A stretch of DNA of 64,000 bases from a virus, in IMG/VR virus record IMGVR_UViG_3300044617_000796, positions 32,001 through 96,000 of that record; one strand, given 5' to 3'. The notes beneath the pieces are model-generated. The model was not told the origin of the DNA. It made no database searches and saw nothing but the letters and a program-made list of their open reading frames with translations. Made by a program: the position numbers and the translations under genes. The stretch's first letter is position 1, and every line of letters starts with the position of its first letter. Below are positions 16,847 through 63,288 of this stretch, one piece after another.

Positions 16847-17860
16847 CTAAGAGAAATTATTTTCGTAGAAAACTATTCTTTCAAGAATTTTATCTGCAAC
16901 GCTTGACCAAGAGTGCTCGTTGTGCAGTGTGCGTGCAGATTGAATTGTATATTTTTTAAACTCATCATATTCAGAAACAACATGAGTCATAAGATCCATC
17001 AATTGTTCCATATCAGGATAAGCCCATAACCCTGTGTCTTCACCGTACTGATGGCTATTCCAATCCGCATTACCCATCTTGCATGAAAGAGGTATTGAAT
17101 ATTTTGCAAAATCACTACATCCAGTTGCATCTGTCACAATTGTTGGCATACCAGTACAAATTGCTTCAAAAGGTATCATACCAAAACCTTCACCACTAGT
17201 TGGGTAAACAAGGCAATGACATTTGTGATAGAGCTTAACTAAATCCTCCGTGCTTAAGTTATCTGGAATACCGTATATTTGAGGATGCTGAATAGCTGGA
17301 ACAAGATTGTTGTCAATATAAACTTCTGCCTGGCAAAAACCATTGTATTTAAGTACAAGCTTAAAGTCATCATTACCTTCATAAAGATCAAGAAATGCAT
17401 CAACAACCATTTGCGCATTTTTTCTTTTTGAATCACCGCCAACATGCAAGAAATTAAATGTCCCTGTGACTTCTCTATCAATTATTTTGAATTCATCAGA
17501 GATGCCGTGCGGAATAACATGAATGTTATGATGCACATTGTTTTGAATATATACATCTTTTACAAAATTAGATGTAGCCCATATCTCATCCATTTGTTGC
17601 ATGTTGTATTTCCAACCAACTGGGATTTTGGTTGACTCCCAAGGAGTATATCCTACCTTGTATAAACTCTGCATTTGATAGTAATGAGGCTGACAGAAGT
17701 TAACATGGAAAGGTATTTCATTCCTATTGTAGAACACAGCTACATCTTTCTCTCTAAGAGCAGCAATAGTGCTAATAGCCGCATTGCTATAGCCTTGACT
17801 ATACCAATGGACACCACTAACATCAATACTACCAGGACTAAACCAGCTGATTTTTTTCAT
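16847..17860 (-). CDS. Glycosyltransferase (GT4/GT-B)
   Basis: WESTKIP, RKN and YPTSGEGFGMIPFEA motifs. Confidence 0.85.
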   Translation of the reverse strand: MKKISWFSPGSIDVSGVHWYSQGYSNAAISTIAALREKDVAVFYNRNEIPFHVNFCQPHYYQMQSLYKVGYTPWESTKIPVGWKYNMQQMDEIWATSNFVKDVYIQNNVHHNIHVIPHGISDEFKIIDREVTGTFNFLHVGGDSKRKNAQMVVDAFLDLYEGNDDFKLVLKYNGFCQAEVYIDNNLVPAIQHPQIYGIPDNLSTEDLVKLYHKCHCLVYPTSGEGFGMIPFEAICTGMPTIVTDATGCSDFAKYSIPLSCKMGNADWNSHQYGEDTGLWAYPDMEQLMDLMTHVVSEYDEFKKYTIQSARTLHNEHSWSSVADKILERIVFYENNFS

Positions 17861-23126: not shown

Positions 23127-23762
23127 ATGCCAGAACTAAATGCAAATATTCCACCAATTGAATGCTATGTGCGTGGTAACTTTTTACGCAATCAAGTTGA
23201 TAGCCATGATGTTAAATTTCCATGTGTAATTTTTGGAGTAGCATCAATACCAGATAGAGCGCCAGTGTTTCATTTCTTAATGGAAGATGGTGGTGTTTGG
23301 TGGAGAGCTCCAATAAATGCCTTTTGCTCATCCCTAGATAGCCCTGAAGTTGATCTACATGATTTGGTTATGTGGAACAGTTTTTCTTCCCACATCACAG
23401 TTACAACTTTTGAACACATGCGTGGTATGTCTATGACCTATCTTGACAGGCGTAAAAACAAAGTTGATGGCAAATACATGTTCACACTAGATTGGCACAC
23501 CCCCGATTCAAATATCGTAAACACTGGTTATTCAATTAACCCAGGTCAGCATAAGTGTGGTCATGTAATAAACAGAAAAGATGGCAACTTTGCTATTCAG
23601 CCAAATAACAGGGTTAGACTATGGGATCCTTCTTATACAACAAAGAAAGACGAAAGGTTGATTGAGAGATTGATCAATACAAAAGTCTGGGATGTGGAAG
23701 ATGGCGATAAATGGGTGACATCAGATGATGACCGATACGATTATGACATCATCTCTGAATAA
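23127..23762 (+). CDS. Phage hypothetical protein (QHKCGH...G.FA.QPNNR)
   Basis: SD AAGGAG; 211-aa ORF. Confidence 0.65.
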   Translation: MPELNANIPPIECYVRGNFLRNQVDSHDVKFPCVIFGVASIPDRAPVFHFLMEDGGVWWRAPINAFCSSLDSPEVDLHDLVMWNSFSSHITVTTFEHMRGMSMTYLDRRKNKVDGKYMFTLDWHTPDSNIVNTGYSINPGQHKCGHVINRKDGNFAIQPNNRVRLWDPSYTTKKDERLIERLINTKVWDVEDGDKWVTSDDDRYDYDIISE

Positions 23763-24856: not shown

Positions 24857-25102
24857 TTATAATTCTATAAAAATGCATTCACCAGGGCACTCTTCGGCGG
24901 CTTCAATAACATCTTCCAACCGATCATCGGGAAAAGATGCTAAACCAGCTGCGCCTTCGGGGTTTCCTCGGAGCTTGGAATAAACCTTCCCGCTCTCTTG
25001 GACATAGGCTAACCCATCCTCCAGCATGGTGAAAACATCGGGTGCTATCTCGGCGCACAGTCCATCTCCAGTACATAGGTCTTGGTCAATCCAAACTCTC
25101 AT
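24857..25102 (-). CDS. Single-cluster ferredoxin (CxxDxxC...CP)
   Basis: WIDQDLCTGDGLCAEIAPDVF...AAEECPGECI. Confidence 0.9.
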   Translation of the reverse strand: MRVWIDQDLCTGDGLCAEIAPDVFTMLEDGLAYVQESGKVYSKLRGNPEGAAGLASFPDDRLEDVIEAAEECPGECIFIEL

Positions 25103-25500
25103 TTGCTCTTGCGCTTTGCAAGTAGGGCATCAAAGTCTTTCACCTTGGTCTCCCCCATGTATCCCCAAGCGTAGCCCTCGTCAATGAGCTGCTCGTTCAA
25201 GGACTTGGCTGCGCCATCAAGGTATACCCAACCTAAAATGCGCCCGTACTTTTCGGTGCTATCGGGAAGCTCTGTTTTTATAATAACTGTTTTGGCTGAA
25301 TCTATCGCACTCTTCACTTTATTTTTAACCTCAAGCCCCAGAGCCTTCTCTCGCAGGTCTTTGGTGCGTGACTCAGGGGTGTCTATTCCAGCCAGTCGGA
25401 CTCGTTGTGCGAAAGAGATATTAAAACCCAGATCAATGTCCACATCAATCGTGTCACCGTCTACTACCTTTGTTACTTTTTTGATATTATATTCGTACAT
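25099..25500 (-). CDS. Thermonuclease (SNase-like)
   Basis: VVDGDTID, VRLAGIDTPE and KYGRILG motifs. Confidence 0.88.
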   Translation of the reverse strand: MYEYNIKKVTKVVDGDTIDVDIDLGFNISFAQRVRLAGIDTPESRTKDLREKALGLEVKNKVKSAIDSAKTVIIKTELPDSTEKYGRILGWVYLDGAAKSLNEQLIDEGYAWGYMGETKVKDFDALLAKRKSK

Positions 25501-25531: not shown

Positions 25532-25705
25532 ATGGCTATCTATCATTACCGCTGCCACAACCAGCACACCTACGAAGAGTCTAGAAAGATGTCTGAAGAA
25601 CCTAGAGTAGTTACATGTCCTGAGTGCGACCTACCTCTGAAACAAATATTCTCCCCGCCAGGAATCAACTTCAAAGGTCATGGCTTCTACCGTAACTCTC
25701 GGTAA
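25532..25705 (+). CDS. FmdB-family zinc-ribbon protein (57 aa, missing from the ORF track)
   Basis: Translated by hand: MAIYHYRCHNQH...CPECDLPLKQIFSPPGINFKGHGFYRNSR. Confidence 0.8.
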   Translation: MAIYHYRCHNQHTYEESRKMSEEPRVVTCPECDLPLKQIFSPPGINFKGHGFYRNSR

Positions 25706-25831: not shown

Positions 25832-26047
25832 TGTGTAGCGGTCTTTTTTATTCTCCCCCAAACTTTTATACTCCTATACCCGCCCTGAACCTTCCTATCC
25901 CAAATTTGAGTATACATTTTATGAATGTTACTTTTACTTTTAGACGCACTGGAAAATCCTGTGTTCACTAGGGTCAATCGCTGGAGTGCGATTCTGCTTA
26001 AGCAAAGAATTGTACACCAGCGATTGGGAAAGCGGATACAAAGGAAA

Positions 26048-26079
26048 TTGAATACACATTTTCTCTCAAATGCTATTGT
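26048..26079 (+). promoter_or_regulatory. Cassette 1 promoter (box B + extended -10 TGC-TATTGT)
   Basis: TGn-TANNNT with -10 exactly 20 nt after the TTGAAT hexamer, as in all eight cassettes. Confidence 0.65.
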
Positions 26080-26120
26080 AATTTGTGTCAAGGCAATCCC
26101 GCCGAGACAGAGAGGACAGT

Positions 26121-26354
26121 ATGATTACTGAACACTGGACACGACAGAATGAGTTGCGTGAGCGTGAGCGCATGGCACTACGCTTGCTCAACCATATCCT
26201 GTCAATGACAATACCCGTTGAGGCTAATGACGATTGGTCTTGCGTCAAGTTCAACCTCAAATTAGAGGGCGGTTCCATTACCGTAATGACAGGCGCACAA
26301 TATCACCCGTCATGCAATATGTACGAGGTCATGGAATACGAGGTACAGCGATGA
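26121..26354 (+). CDS. Cassette 1 gene a, hypothetical
   Basis: SD GAGG before ATG 26121. Confidence 0.65.
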   Translation: MITEHWTRQNELRERERMALRLLNHILSMTIPVEANDDWSCVKFNLKLEGGSITVMTGAQYHPSCNMYEVMEYEVQR

Positions 26355-26443
26355 AGTACCTACCACGCATTGGCTTCGGCATTGTGATTGGTTGCTTGGT
26401 TCTGATGATTGTTCAGACCATCGCCCACGCCTTTACAATGTGA
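26351..26443 (+). CDS. Cassette 1 gene b, 30-aa single-TM peptide
   Basis: ATGA overlap, GAGG upstream; MKYLPRIGFGIVIGCLVLMIVQTIAHAFTM. Confidence 0.5.
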   Translation: MKYLPRIGFGIVIGCLVLMIVQTIAHAFTM

Positions 26444-26447
26444 GCCC

Positions 26448-26492
26448 GAACCCCGAATGCCTCCCCCCTGAGGCATTCGGGGTTCTTTTTTT
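26448..26492 (+). terminator. Cassette 1 terminator
   Basis: 16-bp perfect stem plus T7. Confidence 0.9.
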
Positions 26493-26631
26493 GTCCCTGC
26501 ACCCGCCCTATCGCATGTCTGTTCCAATGAACTTTAATACACTCACAACACACATGCGATCGGGTGGTGGGCAAGGGCGCTTCAGCATTGCAATTGCACA
26601 CCAACTGTTGAGGATCAGAGCATGAACGAGA

Positions 26632-26663
26632 TTGAATACACATTTTTCCTCACATGGTATGTT
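26632..26663 (+). promoter_or_regulatory. Cassette 2 promoter (TGG-TATGTT)
   Basis: Box B + 20 nt + -10. Confidence 0.7.
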
Positions 26664-26708
26664 TATTGTTATCGGAACACACCTAACCCCGATGAAAGGA
26701 CAAAGACC

Positions 26709-27017
26709 ATGAGTGAAAGAATATGTTCATATCATAGTTGGAACTACTTGTATGAAGTGCACCCAAGCGGTAAGTACTTCATTGCATACCAGTTCAGTTA
26801 CGACAATAAAGAGAGACAAGTTATTGCCGTAGTTGACCGCTATGTAACAGATGACAAGTGGGCTGCTATGCGTTGGTGCAGGGCACAGTATGACCTTGAG
26901 GTTGAACCTTGGGACAGAAGTGCTGAAGCCAACGAGATTAGGGAGAGTGCAAGGGTTGCCTTGCATGAACTCCACGAGTTGGAGAAAGAACAGGACAGGT
27001 ATCGTATCTACGGGTGA
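26709..27017 (+). CDS. Cassette 2 gene, hypothetical
   Basis: SD AAGGA before ATG 26709. Confidence 0.65.
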   Translation: MSERICSYHSWNYLYEVHPSGKYFIAYQFSYDNKERQVIAVVDRYVTDDKWAAMRWCRAQYDLEVEPWDRSAEANEIRESARVALHELHELEKEQDRYRIYG

Positions 27018-27022
27018 TACCA

Positions 27023-27050
27023 TCTCCCCTCGCCTTTGGGCGGGGGGAGA
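27023..27050 (+). terminator. Cassette 2 hairpin (lacks T-tract)
   Basis: 12-bp stem nearly identical to the cassette 6 terminator stem. Confidence 0.55.
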
Positions 27051-27182
27051 ACCCCGACCTAATTGCGAACGATCATACATGTTTTTTAATACACATTCTC
27101 ACAAGAAAAAATCATTGGTGTGCGGAGCTGCTTCAGCGAAAGATTTGTGCACCAACGAATAGGGCACATGCTCTCAACAGCG

Positions 27183-27214
27183 TTTAATACACATTTTTTA
27201 CAAGATGGTATGTT
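27183..27214 (+). promoter_or_regulatory. Cassette 3 promoter (TGG-TATGTT)
   Basis: Box B + 20 nt + -10. Confidence 0.7.
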
Positions 27215-27260
27215 TATTTATGTCAAGGACACTCCCTAACACCTTGACAGGGAGATAGCA

Positions 27261-27452
27261 ATGAAAAAGCGGACAGAAGTTAGTCCAAACCACCCAGTCG
27301 CAAGACTGACACTGGAACAACAATTCATGGTTGTTGCAGGCGCACTCAATCGTGCTACCCAGCAGGGCAACACGAAAGGCATTCAGGGCTTGGCAATGAT
27401 GCTCAAGGGTTACGAGGAAGCAATAGCCAAGAAGAACCAAGAAGCCAAGTAA
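27261..27452 (+). CDS. Cassette 3 gene, hypothetical helical protein
   Basis: SD GGGAG. Confidence 0.65.
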   Translation: MKKRTEVSPNHPVARLTLEQQFMVVAGALNRATQQGNTKGIQGLAMMLKGYEEAIAKKNQEAK

Positions 27453-27469
27453 TACCCTAATCCCCCCAG

Positions 27470-27505
27470 TCCCCTCAAGCCGAAAGGCTTGGGGGGATTT
27501 TTTTT
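27470..27505 (+). terminator. Cassette 3 terminator
   Basis: 12-bp stem, GAAA loop, T8. Confidence 0.9.
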
Positions 27506-27643
27506 GCCTAAACACCAGCGTTCTCACATGACCATACCCTTTATCTTTAATACACATTCTCATCACACAAGAACGGTGGTGTGCAAAGCTGCTTCAGCAA
27601 AAGATTTGTACGCCAACGAATGAGGTACACACTATCAACTCTC

Positions 27644-27675
27644 TTTAATACACATTTTCCATCAGATGGTATGGT
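27644..27675 (+). promoter_or_regulatory. Cassette 4 promoter (TGG-TATGGT)
   Basis: Box B + 20 nt + -10. Confidence 0.7.
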
Positions 27676-27719
27676 TATCTTGTTCCTAGCAATCCCGCTA
27701 GGACAGATTGGAGATAGCA

Positions 27720-27941
27720 ATGAAAATTATGGTTACTATCCAAACCCCGACTTGCCCCGAATGCGGGCATTGGGGCGAGATCCAAATGACCCGTGATGAA
27801 TGGGAGTTTGGCAAGACGGCTAGTTGGCAGGGCGAACTCATTCAGAATTGTTTCCCTACCCTTACCCCAGCCCAGCGTGAGCAACTCATGAATGGCTACC
27901 ATTCAGAGTGTTGGGATAAGATGTTTGCGAGTGCAGAATGA
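27720..27941 (+). CDS. Cassette 4 gene a, zinc-binding-like (CPEC...IQ..FP.L....RE.L..G.H..CWD)
   Basis: SD GGAG before ATG 27720. Confidence 0.7.
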   Translation: MKIMVTIQTPTCPECGHWGEIQMTRDEWEFGKTASWQGELIQNCFPTLTPAQREQLMNGYHSECWDKMFASAE

Positions 27942-28177
27942 GCCCGCAATTACTGGAGACTATCCTCCACGCCGTAGCAGACCTACGGATACCCAAGACT
28001 GACGGGGTAATCATTGAGGCTCTCAAGATACCCCGTGAGATATTCCAGCAAGACGGTGTAGAGTGCCGTAAATACAAGCGGAGTGTTGAGCATCAGATAC
28101 GCACTCACCCCGCTATCAAGCCAGTACTTGTCTGGTGGACAGTACACGGTGACTGCTACTTGACAAGAGCAGACTGA
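27938..28177 (+). CDS. Cassette 4 gene b, hypothetical
   Basis: ATGA overlap; ends just before the terminator. Confidence 0.6.
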   Translation: MSPQLLETILHAVADLRIPKTDGVIIEALKIPREIFQQDGVECRKYKRSVEHQIRTHPAIKPVLVWWTVHGDCYLTRAD

Positions 28178-28182
28178 AACTT

Positions 28183-28216
28183 CCCCCTCGTGCCTTCGGG
28201 TGCGAGGGGGTTTTTT
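28183..28216 (+). terminator. Cassette 4 terminator
   Basis: 12-bp stem, cTTCGg loop, T6. Confidence 0.9.
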
Positions 28217-28356
28217 CATGTCCAACACCAGTCTTTCCGTATGCCATTGCCCATTGTCTTGAATACACATTCTCATACGAAAAAAAGAATGGTGTACGGA
28301 GCTGCTTCAGCAAAAGCTTTGTGCACCAGCCGAAGGGGTACACACTCTCAACTACA

Positions 28357-28388
28357 TTGAATACACATTTTTCATGATATGTTATGTT
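28357..28388 (+). promoter_or_regulatory. Cassette 5 promoter (TGT-TATGTT)
   Basis: Box B + 20 nt + -10. Confidence 0.7.
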
Positions 28389-28435
28389 TATTCATGTCAG
28401 CGATTATCCTAACCCCGCTGGCAAGGAGAAAGCAA

Positions 28436-28693
28436 ATGAAACGAGTACCTAAAGGCTCTGTCAAGGTAATGAAGCGTGGGCGCAGTAAGTTCCATGACCC
28501 GTACCTTGCCAAGTGCGTCAAGGCAGTAAGCAACACTTATGATATTGTTGCAACACAAAGGGCAGTACCGAACACGATAGCCAACAAAAACCGTGTTCGT
28601 TCCCGCATTATGAGCCTTGCAGGAAACAAAAAACTTGGCGTGAATTGGTACGCTGAGGGCAAACTTGTAGTGCCAGTAATCACCAAGAAATAA
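28436..28693 (+). CDS. Cassette 5 gene, basic RGR-motif protein (paralog of cassette 7 and 8 genes)
   Basis: SD AAGGAG; KRGRSKFHD...GVNWYAEGKLVV. Confidence 0.7.
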   Translation: MKRVPKGSVKVMKRGRSKFHDPYLAKCVKAVSNTYDIVATQRAVPNTIANKNRVRSRIMSLAGNKKLGVNWYAEGKLVVPVITKK

Positions 28694-28709
28694 GGTCGCT
28701 TCTCCAGCG

Positions 28710-28743
28710 AACCCCCAAGCCTACGGGCTTGGGGGTTTTTTTT
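28710..28743 (+). terminator. Cassette 5 terminator
   Basis: 12-bp stem, cTACGg loop, T-tract. Confidence 0.9.
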
Positions 28744-28884
28744 GTGCCTGAACGCCAGCGCCATAGCAAAGTCATAACCAGTTGGTTGAGCACATGTTCT
28801 CTCTCTTGATATGTCGTTGGCGTGCGGATTGGGTTTACCAAACAATTTGAACGACAACGAAAAGGGTACAGGGTCTCAACGGCA

Positions 28885-28916
28885 TTGAATACACATTTTT
28901 GATGACATGGTATGTT
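28885..28916 (+). promoter_or_regulatory. Cassette 6 promoter (TGG-TATGTT)
   Basis: Box B + 20 nt + -10. Confidence 0.7.
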
Positions 28917-28962
28917 TATAGATGTCAAGGACATTCCATACCCCCTTGACAAGGAGATAGCA

Positions 28963-29229
28963 ATGACACACCTACCCGAACACCCAAGAGCACTCACGAT
29001 TGCTCATGAGGATGTTGTCAAAGTTGCCTTGCAACTGAAAGACAACCTCATCACCAGAGGCGAGATGAATGCTCAGATGCTCAGCATTGTGGTTGGCATG
29101 AAAGTTGCCCTGCGCCAAGAGTTCATTGGCGAAGTGCAGGACAAGTTGAGCGACATTGAGCAACTGTTCACAGATGTTCAAGGCTCAATTGAGGAAATGG
29201 ATTACCTCACACTCTTCCAACCAGAGTGA
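28963..29229 (+). CDS. Cassette 6 gene, acidic helical hypothetical protein
   Basis: SD AAGGAG before ATG 28963. Confidence 0.65.
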   Translation: MTHLPEHPRALTIAHEDVVKVALQLKDNLITRGEMNAQMLSIVVGMKVALRQEFIGEVQDKLSDIEQLFTDVQGSIEEMDYLTLFQPE

Positions 29230-29244
29230 TTGTTCCTTCCCCCG

Positions 29245-29279
29245 CTCCCCTCGCCTTCGGGCGGGGGGAGTTTTTTTTT
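29245..29279 (+). terminator. Cassette 6 terminator
   Basis: 11-bp stem, cTTCGg loop, T9. Confidence 0.9.
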
Positions 29280-29418
29280 GCCTGAACTCCAACTTTTCCC
29301 ATATGCCATGTCTCTTTGCTTGAGTACACATTCTCACACTGGAAAAAAAGCTGGTGGGCGGATCTGCTTTAGCAAAAGATTTGCACTCCAGCCAATGAGG
29401 AAGCGAAACGAAACCAGG

Positions 29419-29450
29419 TTGAATACATATTTTTAGCGTAATGCTATATT
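29419..29450 (+). promoter_or_regulatory. Cassette 7 promoter (TGC-TATATT)
   Basis: Box B + 20 nt + -10. Confidence 0.7.
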
Positions 29451-29516
29451 TATCTCATGCCAAAGCGATTAGGCTGAGGCAACACACTGCGGTGTGTATA
29501 ACCAAGGAGATAAGCA

Positions 29517-29828
29517 ATGCCAAAGGTAAACCTAAGCGACCTCAAAGGTCAGTTATCATCTCGTGGGCGAGCCCCGTATGACAACCCTGAACTTGAGGCT
29601 GAAATCAAGAGCCTTGACCCAGCCATTGATGGTGATGCAACCATCTATGAGGGCAGTCAAGGAGACCCATCAAGCGAGGACTACACGAACCACAAAGCAA
29701 TGTGGCGTGGGCGTGCCGAGACAATTGCCGACAAGAACGGCATTGCCATCAGCGTGCAGTGGCTCACCACTGGTCAGATGGTTATCTCGCTTGCCAAGCC
29801 TGCAAAGGGCAAGAGCAAGCGCAAGTAA
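29517..29828 (+). CDS. Cassette 7 gene, RGR-motif protein
   Basis: SD AAGGAG; close paralog of 30149-30454. Confidence 0.75.
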   Translation: MPKVNLSDLKGQLSSRGRAPYDNPELEAEIKSLDPAIDGDATIYEGSQGDPSSEDYTNHKAMWRGRAETIADKNGIAISVQWLTTGQMVISLAKPAKGKSKRK

Positions 29829-29850
29829 CCGCATCTCCTGCGGTTAGTAT

Positions 29851-29885
29851 AGAACCCCCGTACTTCGGTACGGGGGTTCTTTTTT
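29851..29885 (+). terminator. Cassette 7 terminator
   Basis: 13-bp perfect stem, cTTCGg loop, T-tract. Confidence 0.92.
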
Positions 29886-30050
29886 GCTGGCGTTCATCCC
29901 GTGCTGAAGCACAATGAACGCCAGCTTTGCGACACATGCCATTCTCTCATTTTTAGTACAGATTCTCAATCCCATTCCCTGGCGGGCGTGCGATTGCGCT
30001 TTAGCGATGCAATTGCACACCCGCTGTTGGGGTACCAATACGAAACCGAA

Positions 30051-30082
30051 TTGAATACATATTTTCACCATAATGGTATGTT
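30051..30082 (+). promoter_or_regulatory. Cassette 8 promoter (TGG-TATGTT)
   Basis: Box B + 20 nt + -10. Confidence 0.7.
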
Positions 30083-30148
30083 TATTTATGTCAAAGGCAA
30101 TACCGCCGAGACACACTCATACCGAGTGTTGAACATGGGAGAATACCT

Positions 30149-30454
30149 ATGGCAAAGATAAACCTCAATGACTTGCAAGGCATGCTGTCCAAGCGTGGGC
30201 GTGAGGCGTTCCACGATGAGACACTACAAGCCGAGATTGTTAGCCTTGACCCAAAGGTTGAGGGTGACGCATTCATTTGGGATGACGCACAGGGTAATCC
30301 AAACGATGAGGATTACACAAACCACAAGGCTAAGTATCGTGGTCGTGTTGAAACCATTGCAGAGCGCAACAATGTCGCTGTGTCCGTTCAATGGACTACA
30401 GACGGGCGTTGCGTAGTCTCACTCGCCAAGCCTGCCAAAGGCAAGCGCAAGTAA
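30149..30454 (+). CDS. Cassette 8 gene, RGR-motif protein
   Basis: SD GGGAG; paralog of 29517-29828. Confidence 0.75.
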   Translation: MAKINLNDLQGMLSKRGREAFHDETLQAEIVSLDPKVEGDAFIWDDAQGNPNDEDYTNHKAKYRGRVETIAERNNVAVSVQWTTDGRCVVSLAKPAKGKRK

Positions 30455-30475
30455 CCCTTACCCCGTAAGGCGTGT

Positions 30476-30510
30476 AGAAGCCCCGTACTTCGGTACGGGG
30501 CTTCTTTTTT
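30476..30510 (+). terminator. Cassette 8 terminator
   Basis: 13-bp perfect stem with a compensatory change relative to cassette 7, cTTCGg loop, T-tract. Confidence 0.92.
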
Positions 30511-31330
30511 GCTGGTGTTCATCCCGTGCTAAAGCACAATGAACACCAGTTATCAGAAGGCTTATCGTTACCATTTTTAATATACATATTCCTAATCATA
30601 AAGATGGCGGGTGTCCCAAAAAGAAATGCATTTGTTTTTGTACACCCGCAAAATATAATTAATTTATCGCTTAACTTTATTACATATTTCTAATCATAAC
30701 TATAAGATTACATATGGCTTTCAAAATGTATTCCAAAATCTCATAGATAAATACTTATCTAAGGGAGGAAGGTAAAAGTTTACGCACATTTTATTTTTGT
30801 TAATCAAATGGGCTGGGAAAGACTTAGCCTGTCTCTCTACCTATCGCCTCAGATTACATCAGTGTAATCAAACACTTATACTATTCCTAAATCTATGCAT
30901 CAACCCGTCATTATTCTGGGTCATCAATCGGTTATAGTATTACGCCCCTATATAGTCTAAAAGAGGGGGAATATGTTTGTATTATTCTTATAGATACCCA
31001 GTAATAGGGTATTTACATAGGGGAATCTAAATAGATCTCAATATCTGAGCTTTTTTGCCCAATTGTTGACCATTTTGGTAGTATTTCTATTAAAAATATT
31101 ATTAATTAGTGAAAAAAAGACAAAAAAAACACCCAAAAATAAGCTTATTTTAAGCCTATAAATGGGTGTTTTCCTTATGTACTATGTGATATATCAGCTA
31201 TATATTATTGATACATCTATGATATGCCTATGATATGAACTCCTGCTATATAGAATATATCTTATACATATTGGAGCGTGTCTCTCTCATACGCTAATGG
31301 TTTTTGACACTTATTTTCTATCAATTCAAA

Positions 31331-45443: not shown

Positions 45444-45764
45444 TTATTTTGATTTTTTTATTTGTGTTATTGTTTTGTTTATAACAATTGGGACTATTTC
45501 AGAATAGTCAATTACATTATAAACTTTCTTAATTGAATTTCTTTCACGAGAAGAAAAGCCTCCCCAAACACCATGCTCTATGTTTTCATTTAAAGCATAA
45601 GATAAGCATTCGGTTTGAACTTTGCAATCACCACAAAATTCTCTTGCTTTACTAATTTTCTTTGTGCTGTACCTTCCATTTTCAGTTTCAAAAAAGAAAA
45701 TATCTAATGGATGTTTTTTGCATTTAGCAAAATCTCTCCACTCTTCCCGTCTAGTTTTAGCCAT
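45444..45764 (-). CDS. whiB: WhiB-family transcriptional regulator
   Basis: W...AKC...FF...A...C..C.V...CL.YAL.....GVWGG.S..ER. Confidence 0.92.
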   Translation of the reverse strand: MAKTRREEWRDFAKCKKHPLDIFFFETENGRYSTKKISKAREFCGDCKVQTECLSYALNENIEHGVWGGFSSRERNSIKKVYNVIDYSEIVPIVINKTITQIKKSK

Positions 45765-55249: not shown

Positions 55250-55843
55250 TTAATTTTCATCATCATCATGTTCAATTGCATCCTCAACAATTTTTGTTAC
55301 TTTACCACTCATAATTTCAAATGCAATTTCAAGTTCCTTACGGACTTCATTTGCAATATCTGGGTACTTTGAAATAACATCACGCAAAATCTTTGACAAG
55401 ATCTGATTAACATTCTCTGCCTTTTGCATTCTGGCAATGTATTCACCGTCAGTTTGGTTCCCGCCCATAAGCTTGTGCAGCTGAGCTTTCTTTGTTGCCA
55501 AATCTCCAGCCAATTTAATAGCCTGGATTCTGGCTGCAACCATCCCATTGTCTGTTGCAATAGTAATAGTCTCCCAGGCTTCTTTGCTTAATTCATCAAA
55601 CTCAGTAAGAGCTTTGATTGTATTAAACTGAACTTTTTCAAGGAAAAATGGGTCTTCTTCAATTGTTTGATTTAAAATCAATTTATATTCTTCAATATAT
55701 TCTTTTATTTCATTTACAGGAATAGACATGAGAGTTGATATCTCTCTCATTGAATAACCCTTTACATGCAAAAGACCGACTTGTTCAACATCTTTAATTT
55801 TCTCAATCAAGCTTTTCGTTTTAACTAATTCAATATCTGACAT
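55250..55843 (-). CDS. Probable terminase small subunit (N-terminal HTH)
   Basis: KGYSMREISTLMSIP HTH; helical; directly upstream of terL. Confidence 0.55.
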   Translation of the reverse strand: MSDIELVKTKSLIEKIKDVEQVGLLHVKGYSMREISTLMSIPVNEIKEYIEEYKLILNQTIEEDPFFLEKVQFNTIKALTEFDELSKEAWETITIATDNGMVAARIQAIKLAGDLATKKAQLHKLMGGNQTDGEYIARMQKAENVNQILSKILRDVISKYPDIANEVRKELEIAFEIMSGKVTKIVEDAIEHDDDEN

Positions 55844-56856
55844 AATCTATCTATATACCTCTCCGACACTTTTTCCCATGTCATGTTTTCATTTATATAT
55901 AATGCCGACATGTATGTGCGGTTGGAAATTTCTTCGTAATTGTTTACTGTATACAACATTTTATCACATAAATCGTCAAAATCTGGCTTTGCCCAGTGCC
56001 CTGTGTCTTGATATATGCCAGACATTTTATAATCCGACATTGAGTAATCAAGCGGAATAGAGAGATGAGCAAACTCAGTACAAGCAGAAAAGTTTGTGCA
56101 TATTGTTGGTATGCCCTTCGCTATGCCCTGGAATGGGAGCAGCCCCCACCCTTCTCCACTTGTAGGGTATAATACGCAATCTACTTTATCGTAAATACGA
56201 CCAAGTTCTTCTGCGCTGACTTCCCAATCAATTATATTAATCTGCGGATGATCAAGCTTGTCCTTCATCCCGTTGATAATTGATCTCGCATCAGCTGGTC
56301 CTTTGGATTTATAAATCATTTGGTACTGGTCATTCCCACCAAACAGTTTAATGAATGCGTCAACAGCCACCTGGGAGTTTTTCCTCGTAGATGGGGAGCC
56401 GATACTTAAGAAAGTAAATGGTCCTTTCCTGATTCTCTTACGAGGAAAATATATCTCAGGGTCAACGCCTAATTGAAAATTATAAACTGGTTTTGTAACT
56501 CCACTGTTTATAAAAACAGACCGCATGAAATCAGATGCAGTCCAGATTTCATCCATTCTGTTTAAATCATCTATCCACCCACCTGGAAGCTGGTTAGTCT
56601 CCCAGTACGAGAACCCAATCTTATAATCGCCATACTTGCCATAAGATTCTGGCAGGCAGTGATTGATCACCACACCTTCATGAATATCGTTTGTTCTTGC
56701 ATACCCAATCTGAAGCCCGCTAATTTCTTGCGGACTTTCATTTTCAATCTTACGAAAATCTAACCCGCTCTTACTAATGTGCTTTGTTAGATGATATGAA
56801 GCATCGCCATAACCTTCGCCAATTCTTGACGAACCATTATCTGTCCAAGTGATCAT
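55825..56856 (-). CDS. Glycosyltransferase (GT4/GT-B)
   Basis: WETNQLP, RKN and YPTSGEGWGLLP motifs. Confidence 0.85.
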   Translation of the reverse strand: MITWTDNGSSRIGEGYGDASYHLTKHISKSGLDFRKIENESPQEISGLQIGYARTNDIHEGVVINHCLPESYGKYGDYKIGFSYWETNQLPGGWIDDLNRMDEIWTASDFMRSVFINSGVTKPVYNFQLGVDPEIYFPRKRIRKGPFTFLSIGSPSTRKNSQVAVDAFIKLFGGNDQYQMIYKSKGPADARSIINGMKDKLDHPQINIIDWEVSAEELGRIYDKVDCVLYPTSGEGWGLLPFQGIAKGIPTICTNFSACTEFAHLSIPLDYSMSDYKMSGIYQDTGHWAKPDFDDLCDKMLYTVNNYEEISNRTYMSALYINENMTWEKVSERYIDRLCQILN

Positions 56857-57608: not shown

Positions 57609-57901
57609 TATCTACCCATACCCTTCTTTTTTTGTTGCATTGATTTTCTCCTATCACGCTTCATTTGTTCAGCCTTCCTTTGCATTGGCGATTTTGGCTT
57701 CTTGGAAGTAGCAGACAAGTTCCTTCCCTTGCCCCTGAATTTTAATAGATCGTACTTGTTACACCAGTTATAAAGACCTTGCGGAGTGATTTCAACATTG
57801 TAAGTTTGCTTTAATAACTTCACAATGTCAGTTAAGTTCATCCGCTTCTTTACATAGTGCTCATAAAGCCAGCTTTTGTCTTTATAAGGTTCAAGAGCCA
57901 T
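57608..57901 (-). CDS. Small basic HTH-like protein
   Basis: YKDKSWLYEHYV...DI...T.QGLYNW. Confidence 0.55.
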   Translation of the reverse strand: MALEPYKDKSWLYEHYVKKRMNLTDIVKLLKQTYNVEITPQGLYNWCNKYDLLKFRGKGRNLSATSKKPKSPMQRKAEQMKRDRRKSMQQKKKGMGR

Positions 57902-58454
57902 TAGATACCACCATTAAATAATACCAAAGACCAATGCCAATTGCGTCAACAATGTCATCATCTTTCAAATTTTCCTCTTCCATCTGGAAGTAATCAGTAA
58001 TAATATCCCTGACACGATCTTTTCTTTCTTTCTTCTTCTTAGCCTCTGTGTCAAAAACCATTTTATCTGTTTTAGATATATTTTTATACCCGATTCCTCG
58101 CTTCCAAAGAATCGGGTTAATGTCCATAACTTTAAAACAATAACCCTGAACAATTCCCCAGGTGTAGCCAATTATATAAGATATAACCCTGCTTGTTTGA
58201 AAATTTTGTATATAAACTGATTGCTCAATAATAGTTACGCTAGGATTATGCTTCTTACAAATTTCCTTTAAACCAGCATTAATTTCATTAAATTTTATAG
58301 AAATATCATTTGTTTTTGTAAATTTGATTTTACCGCAATCAACAAGCTTTAGACCGTTGTTAAAATCAATAACAGCCCAACCTAAAGAATGAGATGATGG
58401 ATCTATTGATAAAATTCTTTTATCATGAGAATTAACTATGTTCTTAAGATTCAT
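57891..58454 (-). CDS. RuvC-like Holliday junction resolvase
   Basis: ILSIDPS...GWAV, IIEQ and DD..DAIGIG motifs. Confidence 0.8.
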   Translation of the reverse strand: MNLKNIVNSHDKRILSIDPSSHSLGWAVIDFNNGLKLVDCGKIKFTKTNDISIKFNEINAGLKEICKKHNPSVTIIEQSVYIQNFQTSRVISYIIGYTWGIVQGYCFKVMDINPILWKRGIGYKNISKTDKMVFDTEAKKKKERKDRVRDIITDYFQMEEENLKDDDIVDAIGIGLWYYLMVVSNGS

Positions 58455-58762
58455 TACAGACTATCCCTGACGGAGCCTTCTTCCCAACCCCAACCGACCA
58501 GCCTTTGAACATATCTTTCTCTTTTACATTTTTCACAGATATTTTCTTTATTATACCGTGACAATATAGTTTCACAACTTTTTGTTTTACAAATTCTTTT
58601 TTTATTTATATTAGCTTTTTTTTCATAATAATTACTTAATAGCTTTGCATTTGTAACAATTCTTCTACATTCTGCTGAACAATAAATACTATTATAAGAT
58701 TTAGCCTTAAACGGTCTACTGCAATCTAAATTTTTACATGTCCTTTCGTCATCATTAATCAC
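58454..58762 (-). CDS. Zinc-finger protein (start reassigned to GTG 58762)
   Basis: C....C...YCS..C and C....C.T.LSRYN....C..C motifs. Confidence 0.65.
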   Translation of the reverse strand: MINDDERTCKNLDCSRPFKAKSYNSIYCSAECRRIVTNAKLLSNYYEKKANINKKRICKTKSCETILSRYNKENICEKCKRERYVQRLVGWGWEEGSVRDSL

Positions 58763-59495
58763 TGTCTCCCCAGCATAAAGCAGCCACATTACAATCTGAA
58801 CAATGCTTAGATGTTCTCTTGTACGGTCTGTCGGGGATATTACCGCTAGTGTAATTCCCATAAATATCTCTGTATTTCTTAAAGAGCTTGTCTATGAAAG
58901 CCTGGTCTTTTTCAATATAAATAGGAAGAATTTCTTGATTATTCTTGCATTCATAAATAACAAAACCGCCATCTAAATTCAAGCACTCCATATAAATCTG
59001 CGCTTGTCTGTAATGCTCATCCTTTGGCTTGTTGTGCAGTTTTCTATAATGGAAACCTTCTGAGCTGATTGACTTTAATTCAATCAACTTCTCCCCATGC
59101 CAGTTAATAATTCCATCTGCCGTTCCTTCAATCGGGGGCGATGAATAAGTAACAGGAATTTCTTCGGCTACCAGTATGCCCATCTCTCTAAAATATCCGT
59201 ATAGCCTGTCATGAACAGCATGACCATTATCAAAGATTCTAAGCGTTTGCGCTCTAAAGTCTGGAGTTACGCTAACCCCATCAAACATATAATACCAATA
59301 GCGTGAACATTGGTTGGTATAGCTTGGGTGAAAACCCTTAACTTTTTTAAATTCTGGCTTATTTCTTTCCGTCAGACTTTCGTCAATAGCTTTATTTAAA
59401 CTATCTACTAACTGAGCGGTAGTAAAGCTCTCCTCTGGAACTTCCACTGCGACTTCTACTGGCTTTGGATTCCTCAATACTTTTAGTGATTTCAT
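58755..59495 (-). CDS. Cas4-like PD-(D/E)XK exonuclease
   Basis: C.R..Y, G..VH, G.ADG, ELKS, Q...YM and C..C.....C motifs. Confidence 0.82.
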   Translation of the reverse strand: MKSLKVLRNPKPVEVAVEVPEESFTTAQLVDSLNKAIDESLTERNKPEFKKVKGFHPSYTNQCSRYWYYMFDGVSVTPDFRAQTLRIFDNGHAVHDRLYGYFREMGILVAEEIPVTYSSPPIEGTADGIINWHGEKLIELKSISSEGFHYRKLHNKPKDEHYRQAQIYMECLNLDGGFVIYECKNNQEILPIYIEKDQAFIDKLFKKYRDIYGNYTSGNIPDRPYKRTSKHCSDCNVAALCWGDSD

Positions 59496-60532: not shown

Positions 60533-61780
60533 TCACTCTCCTAAGTGTTTCGTAATCTCTTGGTCTGTTGGTTGTCTAAAATTAGAATTCATAATTAAAT
60601 AATTATATTCTTCGTCAGACACCTTCTGCACTGGATTTTCTTTTGAAAATTTTACACCAGAGCTTGTGCTATACCCAGAGCCTCTTTGAAAATATATATA
60701 TTTCACCCTAGACACTTTGCCCACAGGCTCAAACATTTCCACCCCAACACGCTTAATCAAAGATTTAAGCATCTTATCGCATTGAGATTGCCAGTTGTAT
60801 TCTTTAATAACTTTAGGGGCTTGCTTATAATAGTAATCACATTGAGCATCAAAATTATCAACTGCGTTCTTCATCAACTCAACGGTTGAGTCAAAATCTG
60901 GAAGGATGACATCGCCAGTGTGATAACCAGAGTGCTGTGTTTTACCAAGAGTTGATTCAATAATATTCTTACCAAGATATTTCTCATACGAACACCATTT
61001 GCTTGTTGAGATAGTAGGCATACCTGTTGCTAACGCCTGAAGAGGTATCAACCCAAACCCTTCACCTTCTGTCGGATAAATTAGGATATCATGATCGTGA
61101 TATAGCTGAACCATCTCTTCTTGCGAAAGTGTTTTAAATATTCTCTTAACATTACTTTCATCACCTTGATTAAAAAGGTCCATAACACTGTAGCCAATTG
61201 AATCACCAACCCCGTGATGCTTCAATGTAAGCTCAACATCCTTACTCCCCCTAAATAACTCAAGAAATGCTGTCTTAACAAGGTCTGCTCTTTTACGAGG
61301 ACTGTCTGAGTCAACATGAAGAAATCTAATCTTCTTCCGATTTCCTCTTTTAAAAGGTGTCCACATATCATCAACACCTAATTCAAAAATATATGTAGGT
61401 GTATCAATGCCTGAATTGCGAATCGCATCAACAGAGAATTGATTGCCTACCCAGATTTCATCAAATGTTTTCATGGTGGGAATCCACCAATCCCAAGCCT
61501 TTGTAGCTTCTAAGTATGTGCCATTAATCTTATATTGGTGATCATGGTGTTTCTTGAACCCTGGTTGCCTAAAATCATGACCAGTGACAGGGTTATGCCA
61601 TTCTGGTTCCATATAAAACATTTGAATCTGAGCGGATGGGTCATTATCCACGACTTCTAATTGTTTACCACGATAAGTAAACTGATTAAAATGTTTTACA
61701 ATATTGTCGTAGCCATAAGCATACCCAAACACACCGCCCGCATCTTTAATATGCTGATCAGTATGAATTGAAAATATCAA
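60533..61780 (-). CDS. Glycosyltransferase (GT4/GT-B) with an extra C-terminal GYSTSSG domain
   Basis: YPTEGEGFGLIPLQA motif; C-terminal ~55 aa match 9087-9467. Confidence 0.85.
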   Translation of the reverse strand: MIFSIHTDQHIKDAGGVFGYAYGYDNIVKHFNQFTYRGKQLEVVDNDPSAQIQMFYMEPEWHNPVTGHDFRQPGFKKHHDHQYKINGTYLEATKAWDWWIPTMKTFDEIWVGNQFSVDAIRNSGIDTPTYIFELGVDDMWTPFKRGNRKKIRFLHVDSDSPRKRADLVKTAFLELFRGSKDVELTLKHHGVGDSIGYSVMDLFNQGDESNVKRIFKTLSQEEMVQLYHDHDILIYPTEGEGFGLIPLQALATGMPTISTSKWCSYEKYLGKNIIESTLGKTQHSGYHTGDVILPDFDSTVELMKNAVDNFDAQCDYYYKQAPKVIKEYNWQSQCDKMLKSLIKRVGVEMFEPVGKVSRVKYIYFQRGSGYSTSSGVKFSKENPVQKVSDEEYNYLIMNSNFRQPTDQEITKHLGE

Positions 61781-61929: not shown

Positions 61930-62844
61930 TCATGAGTTAATCTTTTTAAGAATCTCTTTTGATTGTTTATCAGTCAATTCAATTGAGCCCATGCCATTCC
62001 ATTTGCTTTCCTCATAGGAATACCAAGCGCCCTTGCGTTGAATAATATCCATCTCAATAGCAATATCAATGATCTCACGATTTTGGTCAATTCTGCCCTC
62101 TTGCGGAAGTACATAATAATAACCTGTTGCGCCGATTGTAGGAATCTGTTTTGTTTTTTCAACAGTCCAGGTCGCTCGTTGTGAGGTAATCATGTTGTTC
62201 TCTTCACGCTCCATTTCGCTCTTTGACATGGAAAGAAACAGCTTGACGATGTTGTGCATGTTGTGATGAACCGTGTTTCCCATTTTGGCTTTTGTTACCG
62301 CAAACATTCCGCTCAAGTCAACTGTTTGGTGAGCAACGAATAGCATAATGTTACGCTCTTTATGGAGATAGTTCACCAACTTCTGCAGCAGATATCCTTG
62401 CGAGCGTGACTGCAAGCCCATTGCTTTACCACCTTCAGGCTTATCGTAAAACTCTTCCTTAATGATGTTAGATAGTGAGTCAAACAAGAAGATGTGCTTC
62501 TCCTTGTCATCTGTCAAATACCCAATCAAGTTCTTCATAATGTCTTCTACGATGGTAGATTGGATGATTACTACATCCTCAATGTTTATGCCGCACTTAG
62601 CTGCATACGCATCATTATATGATGACTCCGAATCAATGATAACAGGGCGATACCCAAGCTTTTGAGCTTCAGCAATAATGCGAAAACACATGGTTGTCTT
62701 ACCTACCGATGGCGTACCCCAGAATAAATGAGTCGCACCAGTATTAAGACCACCGCCTAAAGCACGATTTAAACCGATGCTAGGGGTTGGAATAACATCA
62801 TGAATAGGCATTGTCTGCCCTTTGCGTTTATCTACAATTAACAT
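61930..62844 (-). CDS. recA: RecA/UvsX-like recombinase
   Basis: LN.ALGGGL, Walker A GTPSVGKTT, IDSE, FDSL and GAWYSY motifs. Confidence 0.85.
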   Translation of the reverse strand: MLIVDKRKGQTMPIHDVIPTPSIGLNRALGGGLNTGATHLFWGTPSVGKTTMCFRIIAEAQKLGYRPVIIDSESSYNDAYAAKCGINIEDVVIIQSTIVEDIMKNLIGYLTDDKEKHIFLFDSLSNIIKEEFYDKPEGGKAMGLQSRSQGYLLQKLVNYLHKERNIMLFVAHQTVDLSGMFAVTKAKMGNTVHHNMHNIVKLFLSMSKSEMEREENNMITSQRATWTVEKTKQIPTIGATGYYYVLPQEGRIDQNREIIDIAIEMDIIQRKGAWYSYEESKWNGMGSIELTDKQSKEILKKINS

Positions 62845-62853
62845 ATTTCTCCT

Positions 62854-63288
62854 TTATTGAAACATTCTATCTAGAATTCTTGATTTAATAATTGTTGTTG
62901 AAATGTGTTCGCTATACGGAACAAAGATTACTTTAATGTTATGTTCATCAAGCCATTCCTGGGTAAAGCCCATTTGTTTATGGTAGTCCTTGGTCTCCCA
63001 ATCTGAACCAACAACAATGACATCTGCTTTCGCCTCTAGGATAGCAGGTTTTGAATCAGCTCCGCCTGTGTTAATGATAACTTTGTCCACCCATTTGCAA
63101 GAAGATACAACTTCCATTCTTTCAAATAATTCACAAATTGGCGGTTCTTTATACTGAGCACAGAACTCACTTGGGTTAACCGACACCACTACTTGACCAC
63201 CGACACCAGCTATATTCTTACATCTCTCTAACAATCGGCTATGACCCGAATGAAAAAGATCAAATGTTCCACCTGTATATACAATCAT
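62854..63288 (-). CDS. Cytidylyltransferase (TagD-like)
   Basis: YTGGTFDLFHSGH, ER...V..CK.VD.V, GSDW and ISTT motifs. Confidence 0.85.
   Translation of the reverse strand: MIVYTGGTFDLFHSGHSRLLERCKNIAGVGGQVVVSVNPSEFCAQYKEPPICELFERMEVVSSCKWVDKVIINTGGADSKPAILEAKADVIVVGSDWETKDYHKQMGFTQEWLDEHNIKVIFVPYSEHISTTIIKSRILDRMFQ

Follow-up and report, generated by a model that had tools for sequence, protein, structure and literature searches.

An array of probably autonomous small-gene cassettes resembling the PeSL regions of T4-type phages in a ~109-kb phage with a probable actinobacterial host

The DNA analysed here (the window; 64,000 nucleotides) comprises bases 32001-96000 of the 108,840-bp IMG/VR record IMGVR_UViG_3300044617_000796, the genome of a tailed phage hereafter referred to as W; coordinates are window positions unless prefixed G000:C1. 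Between positions 25906 and 30716, W carries an array of eight cassette units followed by a ninth element without cargo. We consider it fairly probable that this array is a hyperplastic set of autonomous, probably early expression cassettes that are shuffled by short-homology recombination, much like the genes flanked by promoter-stem-loop (PeSL) repeats in T4-type phages.

The eight units and the ninth element are present where the original prediction had placed them and have the order of parts that it described, each unit consisting of a box A, a 45-nt hairpin, a box B, an extended -10, a 5′ stem-loop, a Shine-Dalgarno (SD) sequence, one or two orphan open reading frames (ORFs) and a terminator, all on the + strand. 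Box B (TTKAATACAYATTT; core 13 nt) is followed some 12-13 nt further on by TAWGKT, itself preceded by TGn, and starts at positions 26048, 26632, 27183, 27644, 28357, 28885, 29419 and 30051, the spacings from box B to box B being 584, 551, 461, 713, 528, 534 and 632 nt. Box A lies 98-99 nt upstream of box B; four units (3, 4, 5 and 7) have a clear copy and three (2, 6 and 8) a degenerate one. Its predicted absence from the expected place in unit 1 was confirmed, and a box-like site occurs there 142 nt upstream of box B, at 25906. Leaders are 36-61 nt long and, in every unit, start with a stem-loop and finish with a GGAG-type SD and ATG. All cassettes but one are closed by a canonical intrinsic terminator, the exception being cassette 2, which ends in a GC-rich hairpin without a T-run (27020-27050; repeat family D10); terminator-like sites numbered 19 in our scan against 5.3 ± 2.4 in shuffled sequences. 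The presence in the units of a promoter-like site and a terminator of their own is in keeping with their proposed reading as self-contained expression units.

The head of the array is occupied by a site designated P0 (25906-25934), a box variant followed 10 nt on by TGnTACTTT, which lies upstream of hairpin 1, is conserved in relatives and may represent a promoter. Element 1 (25978-26120) comprises hairpin 25978-26022, box B 26048-26062, -10 26074-26079 and, at 26085-26120, the leader with its 5′ stem-loop; its cargo (26121-26443) is a 77-aa ORF (26121-26354) overlapped by a 30-aa hydrophobic ORF (26351-26443), and the terminator detected by the scan lies at 26448-26492. The elements of all later units end in their leader. 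Element 2 (26533-26708), with degenerate box A 26533-26548, hairpin 26562-26606, box B 26632-26646 and -10 26658-26663, precedes a 102-aa ORF (26709-27017) of family F4, which is also found in L009 and L013 (F-numbers designate cargo protein families from blastp and L-numbers related contigs). In element 3 (27085-27260), box A is at 27085-27099, the hairpin at 27113-27157, box B at 27183-27197 and the -10 at 27209-27214; a 63-aa ORF (27261-27452) and a scan-detected terminator (27468-27507) follow. Element 4 (27546-27719; box A 27546-27560, hairpin 27574-27618, box B 27644-27658, -10 27670-27675) drives, if functional, a two-gene cargo (27720-28177) made of a 73-aa CxxC protein of family F2 (27720-27941) and a 79-aa ORF of family F8 (27938-28177), closed by a terminator from the same scan at 28183-28216. 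Element 5 (28259-28435; box A 28259-28273, hairpin 28287-28331, box B 28357-28371, -10 28383-28388) is followed by an 85-aa ORF that is a distant member of family F1 (28436-28693) and by terminator 28709-28745, and element 6 (28787-28962; degenerate box A 28787-28801, hairpin 28815-28859, box B 28885-28899, -10 28911-28916) by an 88-aa ORF (28963-29229) and terminator 29244-29280, both terminators again from the scan. The last two units have 61-nt leaders and carry F1 paralogs that are 60% identical to each other: element 7 (29320-29516; box A 29320-29334, hairpin 29349-29393, box B 29419-29433, -10 29445-29450) with a 103-aa ORF (29517-29828), and element 8 (29953-30148; degenerate box A 29953-29967, hairpin 29981-30025, box B 30051-30065, -10 30077-30082) with a 101-aa ORF (30149-30454). 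In both of them the terminator (29851-29886 and 30476-30511) is joined by an extra palindromic hairpin (29886-29925 and 30510-30549), the composite regions, assigned to repeat family D7, spanning 29851-29925 and 30476-30549, respectively. The terminal element (30577-30716) has a box A-like site (30577-30591), a hairpin (30605-30649), a box B-like site (30676-30690) and TATAAG at 30701-30706.

These signals are confined to the array. A degenerate box pattern matched the + strand of the 108,840-bp genome 12 times, every match falling inside the array, and had no match on the - strand; the reversed control had none either. A covariance model built from 50 copies and run on the whole genome scored the eight elements at 88-105 bits and gave 33.8 bits (E 4e-5) for the ninth; outside the array it identified nothing convincing. 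The ninth element is indeed without cargo, as originally described; it is not simply decayed, however, since it is conserved in all three lineages recovered (it is present in L009, L010, L013 and L102). It is followed by a conserved AT-rich non-coding stretch (30716-31240) in which the inverted repeat ATTACA-N4-TGTAAT (~30875-30892) is invariant and which also holds a terminator-like site, GAGCTTTTTT, at ~31055 and a bidirectional terminator at ~31130-31180. This stretch could give rise to a non-coding RNA, with the ninth element as its driver, or serve as an origin.

Relatives of W were recovered using a cargo protein, two DNA patterns and the covariance model. The same array was found in four other IMG/VR contigs, represented by L009, L010, L013 and L011/L035, and in at least eight metagenome contigs (L067, L071, L081, L085, L087, L102, L133 and L136). 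As these independent assemblies carry the same array, the possibility of an assembly artefact, raised at the outset, is excluded. The remaining pattern hits were single chance matches, including all of those among the matches listed from 185,579 prokaryote genomes, where prophage or host copies would have appeared, and no match among cultured phages was obtained in a blastn search of 50,697 phage records with the array as query. A Zn-ribbon (FmdB-like) gene, located in W at 25532-25705 on the + strand (Pfam PF09723, 2.1e-9), was found by tblastn directly upstream of the first element in L009, L010, L013, L067 and L133, and P0 is kept in W, L009, L010, L013, L067, L133 and L136, 142-146 nt ahead of the first box B. 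Wherever the start of an array was captured, it came after the Zn-ribbon gene and P0, and wherever the end was captured, it was formed by the cargo-less element and the AT-rich stretch; the array is thus a long-established locus, fixed in position, in a narrow lineage of phages. We note that the Zn-ribbon gene of W has TATACT just 8 nt ahead of its ATG and no SD, and so looks as if it were transcribed into a leaderless mRNA. Leaderless mRNAs are common in actinobacteria.

Between these fixed ends, cassette order and content vary among relatives. An F13 cassette is present in L009 and L010 and missing from W, an F17 cassette is present in L067 and missing from L010, and L102 holds two cassettes that L010 is without. 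The F8 ORF of cassette 4 is replaced with an unrelated ORF in L009 and is found in a different cassette in L010, and single-gene indels occur at gene boundaries within a cassette, F8 again being an example. The prediction that the array is shufflable is therefore borne out by gain and loss of whole cassettes, ORF replacement and single-gene indels, and the relatives do not share a fixed gene order. Six exchange junctions could be mapped: three are located in the interval between box B and the start site, the other three at the SD or start codon. To the first group belongs element 1 of W, a chimera whose upstream flank and hairpin are those of the L009 element preceding F13 and whose leader is that of the L009 element preceding F9, the switch occurring between box B and the start site; in the L010/L102 cassette indel homology stops at +44, in the same junction zone, and in the L013/L087 cassette indel the switch occurs between -3 and +21. 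Exchange of ORFs is exemplified by family F6, whose copies in L010 and L013 are 88% identical across the entire segment that starts at +61 (96-100% in most 25-nt windows), with a similarity that spans the SD to ~10 nt past the stop codon and flanking promoter, leader and terminator sequences that are only ~50% identical, and by an ORF swap between L067 and L133 that breaks at +63. None of the six junctions lies inside the hairpin; a breakpoint at the 5′ edge of the hairpin in unit 7 of W and L009 (-69) reflects only divergence of the box A flank. The repeat does behave as a recombination site, as had been proposed, insofar as the crossovers of the three indels map between box B and the start site, and this role does not extend to its hairpin.

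The elements themselves evolve in concert. Their identity within a lineage is 0.67-0.84, whereas elements upstream of orthologous cargo in W- or L010-type and L013-type arrays are only 0.48-0.57 identical, like random cross-lineage pairs, and elements group by lineage, not by cargo. At a finer scale, the F4 leaders of W and L013 are alike, the leader moving with its cargo, and a 78-nt repeat covering terminator and hairpin (29847-29924 and 30472-30549) is 92% identical as compared to 60% for the proteins of cassettes 7 and 8. Such a pattern shows that the promoter module is homogenised by conversion or unequal exchange while ORFs come and go. It is difficult to reconcile with a static, promoter-rich early region born from tandem duplication of one cassette whose cargo then diverged, with no special mobility. 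The latter would account for F1, the sole cargo family found in every complete array, whose paralogs number two to four at the 3′ end of each and fill three of the eight cassettes of W (28436-28693, 29517-29828 and 30149-30454), and for the collinearity of the last two cassettes across all lineages. It does not account for unrelated cargo types lying side by side, for relatives differing in cassette order and content, for clustering of elements by lineage, or for a near-identical ORF within ~50%-identical elements, a situation indicative of recent lateral exchange. We regard a static region as quite improbable and already largely refuted.

A well-supported structure within the module is the 45-nt hairpin, which occupies positions -70 to -26 relative to box B in all nine elements and forms an imperfect stem of ~18-20 bp with a conserved internal mismatch. 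Among 50 distinct copies, double changes affect 8 of 14 stem pairs, and pairing is maintained in 80% of cells as opposed to 29-46% when the partners are slid. The excess of G.T over A.C pairs (70 versus 7) and the greater stability of the + strand fold (mean energy -17.9 kcal/mol versus -12.8 kcal/mol for the - strand; + more stable in 47 of the 50 copies) indicate that the fold is selected on the sense strand. The distance from hairpin to box B is invariant in 50/50 copies from three lineages, even though L013-type spacers share only 33% identity with those of the other two lineages, which suggests that the function of the hairpin is tied to the promoter. Upstream, the module retains a copy of itself that is mostly reduced to a 3′ arm (CACCAGC) and a box in decay but still has its full palindromic hairpin after cassettes 7 and 8, and the module thus looks like an old tandem duplication of a hairpin-spacer-box unit.

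The strand specificity and covariation of this hairpin, its occurrence once per cassette and the gain and loss of whole cassettes are what one would expect if it folded as single-stranded DNA in the manner of an integron attC site, at which an unrecognised recombinase would move single cassettes. The integron analogy drawn in the original prediction was nevertheless not supported. No tyrosine recombinase (PF00589; control positive in 14/14 genomes), serine recombinase (PF00239, PF07508) or Y1-HUH transposase (PF01797) domain was matched in the whole 108,840-bp genome, which CheckV rates as 100% complete, the exchange junctions lie outside the hairpin, and the cassettes carry promoter-like sites and terminators of their own; the array is for these reasons not considered an integron. 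In addition, the fixed distance of the hairpin upstream of the promoter links it with promoter function, no attC-like R/L or GTTRRRY-type core was apparent by reading the sequences alone, and no arrays were seen among the matches listed in the prokaryote genome scan. Small contigs, none of which has terminal overlaps, are uninformative on single-cassette mini-circles. An attC-like hairpin served by an unrecognised enzyme is, in our opinion, highly improbable.

The preferred reading, that of a PeSL-like array, involves the following steps. Host RNA polymerase would read each cassette from the extended -10 (TGn-TAWGKT), with the conserved 13-15-bp box at about -38 to -24 standing in for a usable -35; the TTGAAT of the box, located 20 nt from the -10, is too far from it to be a -35 itself. 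The box is partly dyad-symmetric (GAAT-N4-ATTC in box A of W, GAATA-CA-TATTC in L013), suggestive of a dimeric regulator, and all cassettes would most likely be switched together by one dedicated regulator acting at this site, whose geometry is reminiscent of the MotA box of T4 middle promoters or of an operator for early shut-off. The Zn-ribbon protein encoded at the head of the array, the F1 family and two phage WhiB proteins are candidates for this regulator. Each mRNA would start, ~7 nt downstream of the -10, in a protective 5′ stem-loop followed by a strong SD, code for one or two small orphan proteins and end at its own terminator. The promoter type and the orphan cargo are suggestive of the early, host-takeover role originally put forward. 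The ~210-bp module preceding every cassette would then allow general recombination to cross over between modules, the longest identical stretches of which run from box B to the start site and over the SD-ATG block. Putative crossover enzymes, all encoded on the - strand, are a RecA/UvsX-like recombinase (61933-62844; Pfam RecA, 5.6e-21; UvsX-like PHROG), a RuvC-like junction resolvase (57894-58454; PF02075, 3.9e-8) and a Cas4/RecB-family exonuclease (58758-59495; PHROGs 1706 and 1990). Crossovers would delete, duplicate, replace or laterally import cassettes and ORFs, and homogenise modules within a lineage. The pattern of exchanges fits homologous or short-homology recombination, as in the PeSL precedent that had been named alongside integrons.

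Other sources of promoter specificity were considered. Sigma-70 region 2 had no match in the genome, nor did T7-type RNA polymerase, for which the control was silent and the result consequently uninformative. A 4375-aa ORF envisaged as an N4-like virion polymerase was rejected upon being recognised as the tape-measure protein. Box A was dismissed as a second promoter, no conserved -10 being found at any fixed distance after it, and a Bacteroidetes-type -7 promoter (TAnnTTTG) was discarded given that relatives have TAAGGT and that the strong SD and WhiB point to actinobacteria.

Several observations weigh against the reading we favour. The strength, timing and start sites of the promoters are predictions, and only six exchange junctions were informative. 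With three of them grouped between box B and the start site, a hot spot could be at work rather than plain homology. The F8 indel and the replacement of the second ORF of cassette 4 have no element at one or both ends, implying that illegitimate or gene-boundary recombination also contributes. Most proteins of the phage are unannotated, and a recombinase of an unrecognised family may be among them. Finally, two features are not predicted by a model combining regulation and homology. One is the covarying, strand-specific hairpin at invariant spacing. The other is the doubled third-codon-position GC content (GC3) of the cargo, which amounts to 0.49-0.61 in the cargo ORFs (26121-30454) against 0.16-0.44 in the other phage genes sampled and forms an island in L009, L010 and L013 as well. 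GC-biased conversion, host-like codon use of the first-translated genes and a gene pool held in common with higher-GC phages are all possible origins of this island.

As for the hairpin, two roles compatible with a PeSL-like array were given roughly equal weight, and an attC-like role little weight. The first is a role as RNA, in which transcripts from P0 or from read-through of terminators would contain one hairpin between successive cassettes, to be used by a double-strand-specific RNase or a phage RNA-binding protein for processing, insulation or antitermination, in the manner of the RNase III sites between T7 early genes. The sense-strand bias with its G.U pairs and the ~18-20-bp imperfect stem with an internal mismatch speak for this role, as do the lack of a T-run in the terminal hairpin of cassette 2 and the conservation in all lineages of P0, which, if active, would put hairpin 1 within a leader. 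Strong canonical terminators, however, precede seven of the eight hairpins, no -10 accompanies box A, and a processing site has no need of an invariant distance to the next promoter. Nor did Rfam 15 provide a credible family for the hairpin or the element, whether at the gathering or at a permissive threshold: only three tRNAs reached the gathering score in the window, and the best array hit (E 0.027) was far below threshold. An RNA role is accordingly possible but doubtful. The hairpin had also been considered as an antisense terminator, a candidate that was abandoned as an A-run precedes it in only three of eight units, and not in relatives, and as its - strand fold is the weaker one.

The second role would be exerted at the DNA level, where a + strand stem-loop, extruded from DNA that is negatively supercoiled or transiently single-stranded, and box B would be bound by one protein complex that activates or silences the promoter, the centres of hairpin and box being ~53 bp apart. 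Hairpin promoters of phage N4 and the p4/p6 complexes of phage phi29 are the closest precedents. This would explain why the spacing of hairpin, box B and -10 is invariant across three lineages in spite of the diverged spacer, and why the hairpin is homogenised along with the promoter and not with the cargo; apart from hairpin 1, which P0 precedes, the hairpins also lie where no promoter is evident upstream. Conversely, no candidate binding protein, sigma factor or phage RNA polymerase was found (with the reservation made above about the T7-type polymerase control), and extruding an imperfect hairpin of 45 nt from duplex DNA in a stable form carries a high energetic cost. We hold this role to be a tentative proposition, on a par with the RNA role. 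A more far-reaching and, in our view, unlikely scenario is that hairpin and box together constitute a new cis-element, a strand-specific DNA or nascent-RNA structure that a phage or host factor would read so as to fire or silence every cassette promoter, and that would also mark the edge of the promoter as a recombination hot spot. If true, a single module would couple the control of expression with the exchange of cassettes, independently of any site-specific recombinase, and the doubled GC3 would be the footprint of intense biased gene conversion. With strong structural support, no family match and no obvious transcript, the hairpin represents a concrete experimental target.

The cargo ORFs have few homologs and no informative Pfam or PHROG assignment. 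They include such diverse types as a 30-aa hydrophobic peptide, a CxxC protein and the alpha/beta F1 fold; those of cassette 1 have homologs in L009 that are 52-54% identical. Searches of 5.8 billion proteins, ESM Atlas, Foldseek and VIA for their function yielded uncharacterised viral proteins and weak hits only (Z ≤ 5.2). F1 proteins are ~100 aa long and share an invariant R-G-R and a lysine-rich basic tail; the AlphaFold model of the family predicts an alpha/beta fold (predicted local distance difference test score, pLDDT, 82) for which Foldseek returned no informative match, the best being an uncharacterised viral protein (E 6.6e-6).

Elsewhere in its genome, W encodes a portal, a protease/capsid protein, a terminase, a tape-measure protein, a DnaE-type polymerase and a ribonucleotide reductase. 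Large (~130 kb) Streptomyces phages show 41-47% identity to its portal and terminase, and two WhiB-family genes are present, at 45447-45764 and at G000:C1:103294-103470, both on the - strand; members of this family are essentially confined to actinobacteria and their phages. Together, these two lines of evidence point to an actinobacterial host, most likely a low-GC freshwater actinobacterium, in that the related contigs stem from environmental metagenomes (JGI, ENA), with record identifiers suggestive of origins in lakes and estuaries. A TAnnnT extended -10, a weak -35 and a strong SD are in keeping with actinobacterial expression signals. W is thus probably a lytic-looking, siphovirus-type phage of ~109 kb that infects freshwater actinobacteria. 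Its tape-measure protein, encoded by one ORF of 4375 aa (G000:C1:4812-17939, outside the window; L163) and bearing a phage minor-tail domain at its N-terminus, would imply an exceptionally long tail. Three genes are located shortly before the array: one (23127-23759, +) up to 58% identical to cyanophage and pelagiphage records labelled PurM or 'ferredoxin', a 4Fe-4S ferredoxin gene (24860-25102, -) and, beside the array, an SNase-type nuclease gene (25102-25500, -). Three GT4-type glycosyltransferase paralogs and one GT2 (16850-17860, 55828-56856, 60536-61780 and 63288-63962, all on the - strand), accompanied by a cytidylyltransferase gene (62857-63288), are suggestive of phage-directed glycosylation.

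The lineage of W probably comprises large phages of abundant, hard-to-culture freshwater actinobacteria, and its array may illustrate a general way for lytic phages to hold exchangeable small accessory genes, possibly with host-takeover or anti-defence functions, under one switch. The more than 50 diverged copies of the module available from three lineages also provide a natural data set for the study of concerted evolution, short-homology recombination and, possibly, GC-biased conversion.

A number of known systems share part of this organization. Morons of lambdoid and other temperate phages are promoter-gene-terminator units inserted between phage genes and, like the cassettes of W, are independent transcription units with accessory cargo; they are, however, single insertions with unrelated regulatory sequences, whereas 8-10 units built on one homogenised module form an array here. 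Integron cassettes consist of mostly promoterless genes with an attC site recognised by IntI and are expressed from a common Pc promoter. The array of W has in common with them co-oriented small cassettes of variable content, each with a strand-biased imperfect hairpin, but has no IntI or other tyrosine recombinase, shows no attI or Pc arrangement and is endowed with putative promoters of its own; moreover, its hairpin is 5′ of the promoter where attC is 3′ of the ORF. T4 middle promoters combine a MotA box centred at -30 with a sigma-70 -10. In both T4 and W a box replaces the -35 some 12-13 bp upstream of a TAnnnT -10; that of W differs in sequence, is partly dyad-symmetric and would depend on a factor, and we know of no MotA or AsiA homolog in W.

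Start-associated sequences (SAS) and extended SAS (ESAS) of Cluster K mycobacteriophages are actinophage-specific repeats in one orientation that include the SD and precede the ATG starts of non-structural genes; the SAS have a 13-bp consensus, GGGATAGGAGCCC, located 3-7 bp before start codons, are often preceded by an imperfect inverted repeat and show a lineage-specific consensus (PMC3203893). The 5′ stem-loop and GGAGA(T/A)AGCAATG block of W, also a crossover point, may be regarded as similar in behaviour by analogy only, as this block does not conform to the GGGATAGGAGCCC consensus and as SAS are uncoupled from promoter box, upstream hairpin and terminator and dispersed across half a genome. 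Stoperators of Cluster A mycobacteriophages are numerous 13-bp asymmetric intergenic sites in one orientation relative to transcription (PMC9283540, PMC6550527). They share with the boxes of W the principle of many one-orientation sites through which one regulator would control many units, and differ from them in being bound by an immunity repressor and distributed genome-wide in temperate phages, the sites of W being confined to the array and no repressor or integrase having been seen.

The closest likeness is to PeSL, composite terminator/early-promoter repeats that flank ORFans in the hyperplastic regions of T4-type phages and recombine through the general recombination system of the phage, independently of a dedicated recombinase (PMC2839356, PMC4122927). 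Common to both are a stem-loop terminator and a predicted strong host-type promoter repeated between orphan ORFs, a content that varies between relatives, and crossovers within the repeats in indels and replacements between close relatives (here W/L009, L010/L102 and L013/L087). The differences are nonetheless considerable. W belongs to an unrelated lineage with an unrelated host (actinobacterial, siphovirus-type as opposed to T4-like myovirus) and shows no sequence similarity to PeSL; its module is ~4 times larger, uses a non-canonical box in place of a -35, has this box duplicated and adds a strand-specific second, non-terminator hairpin at fixed spacing; its copies form one contiguous array instead of being dispersed; and its cargo has a strongly deviant GC3. 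To our knowledge, records of mobile regulatory cassettes of the PeSL type are essentially confined to T4-like myoviruses with Gram-negative hosts. The array of W, neither homologous to a PeSL region nor an integron, is best classed as working like a PeSL region, and the assembly of the same evolutionary device from different parts in an unrelated lineage is suggestive of convergent evolution.

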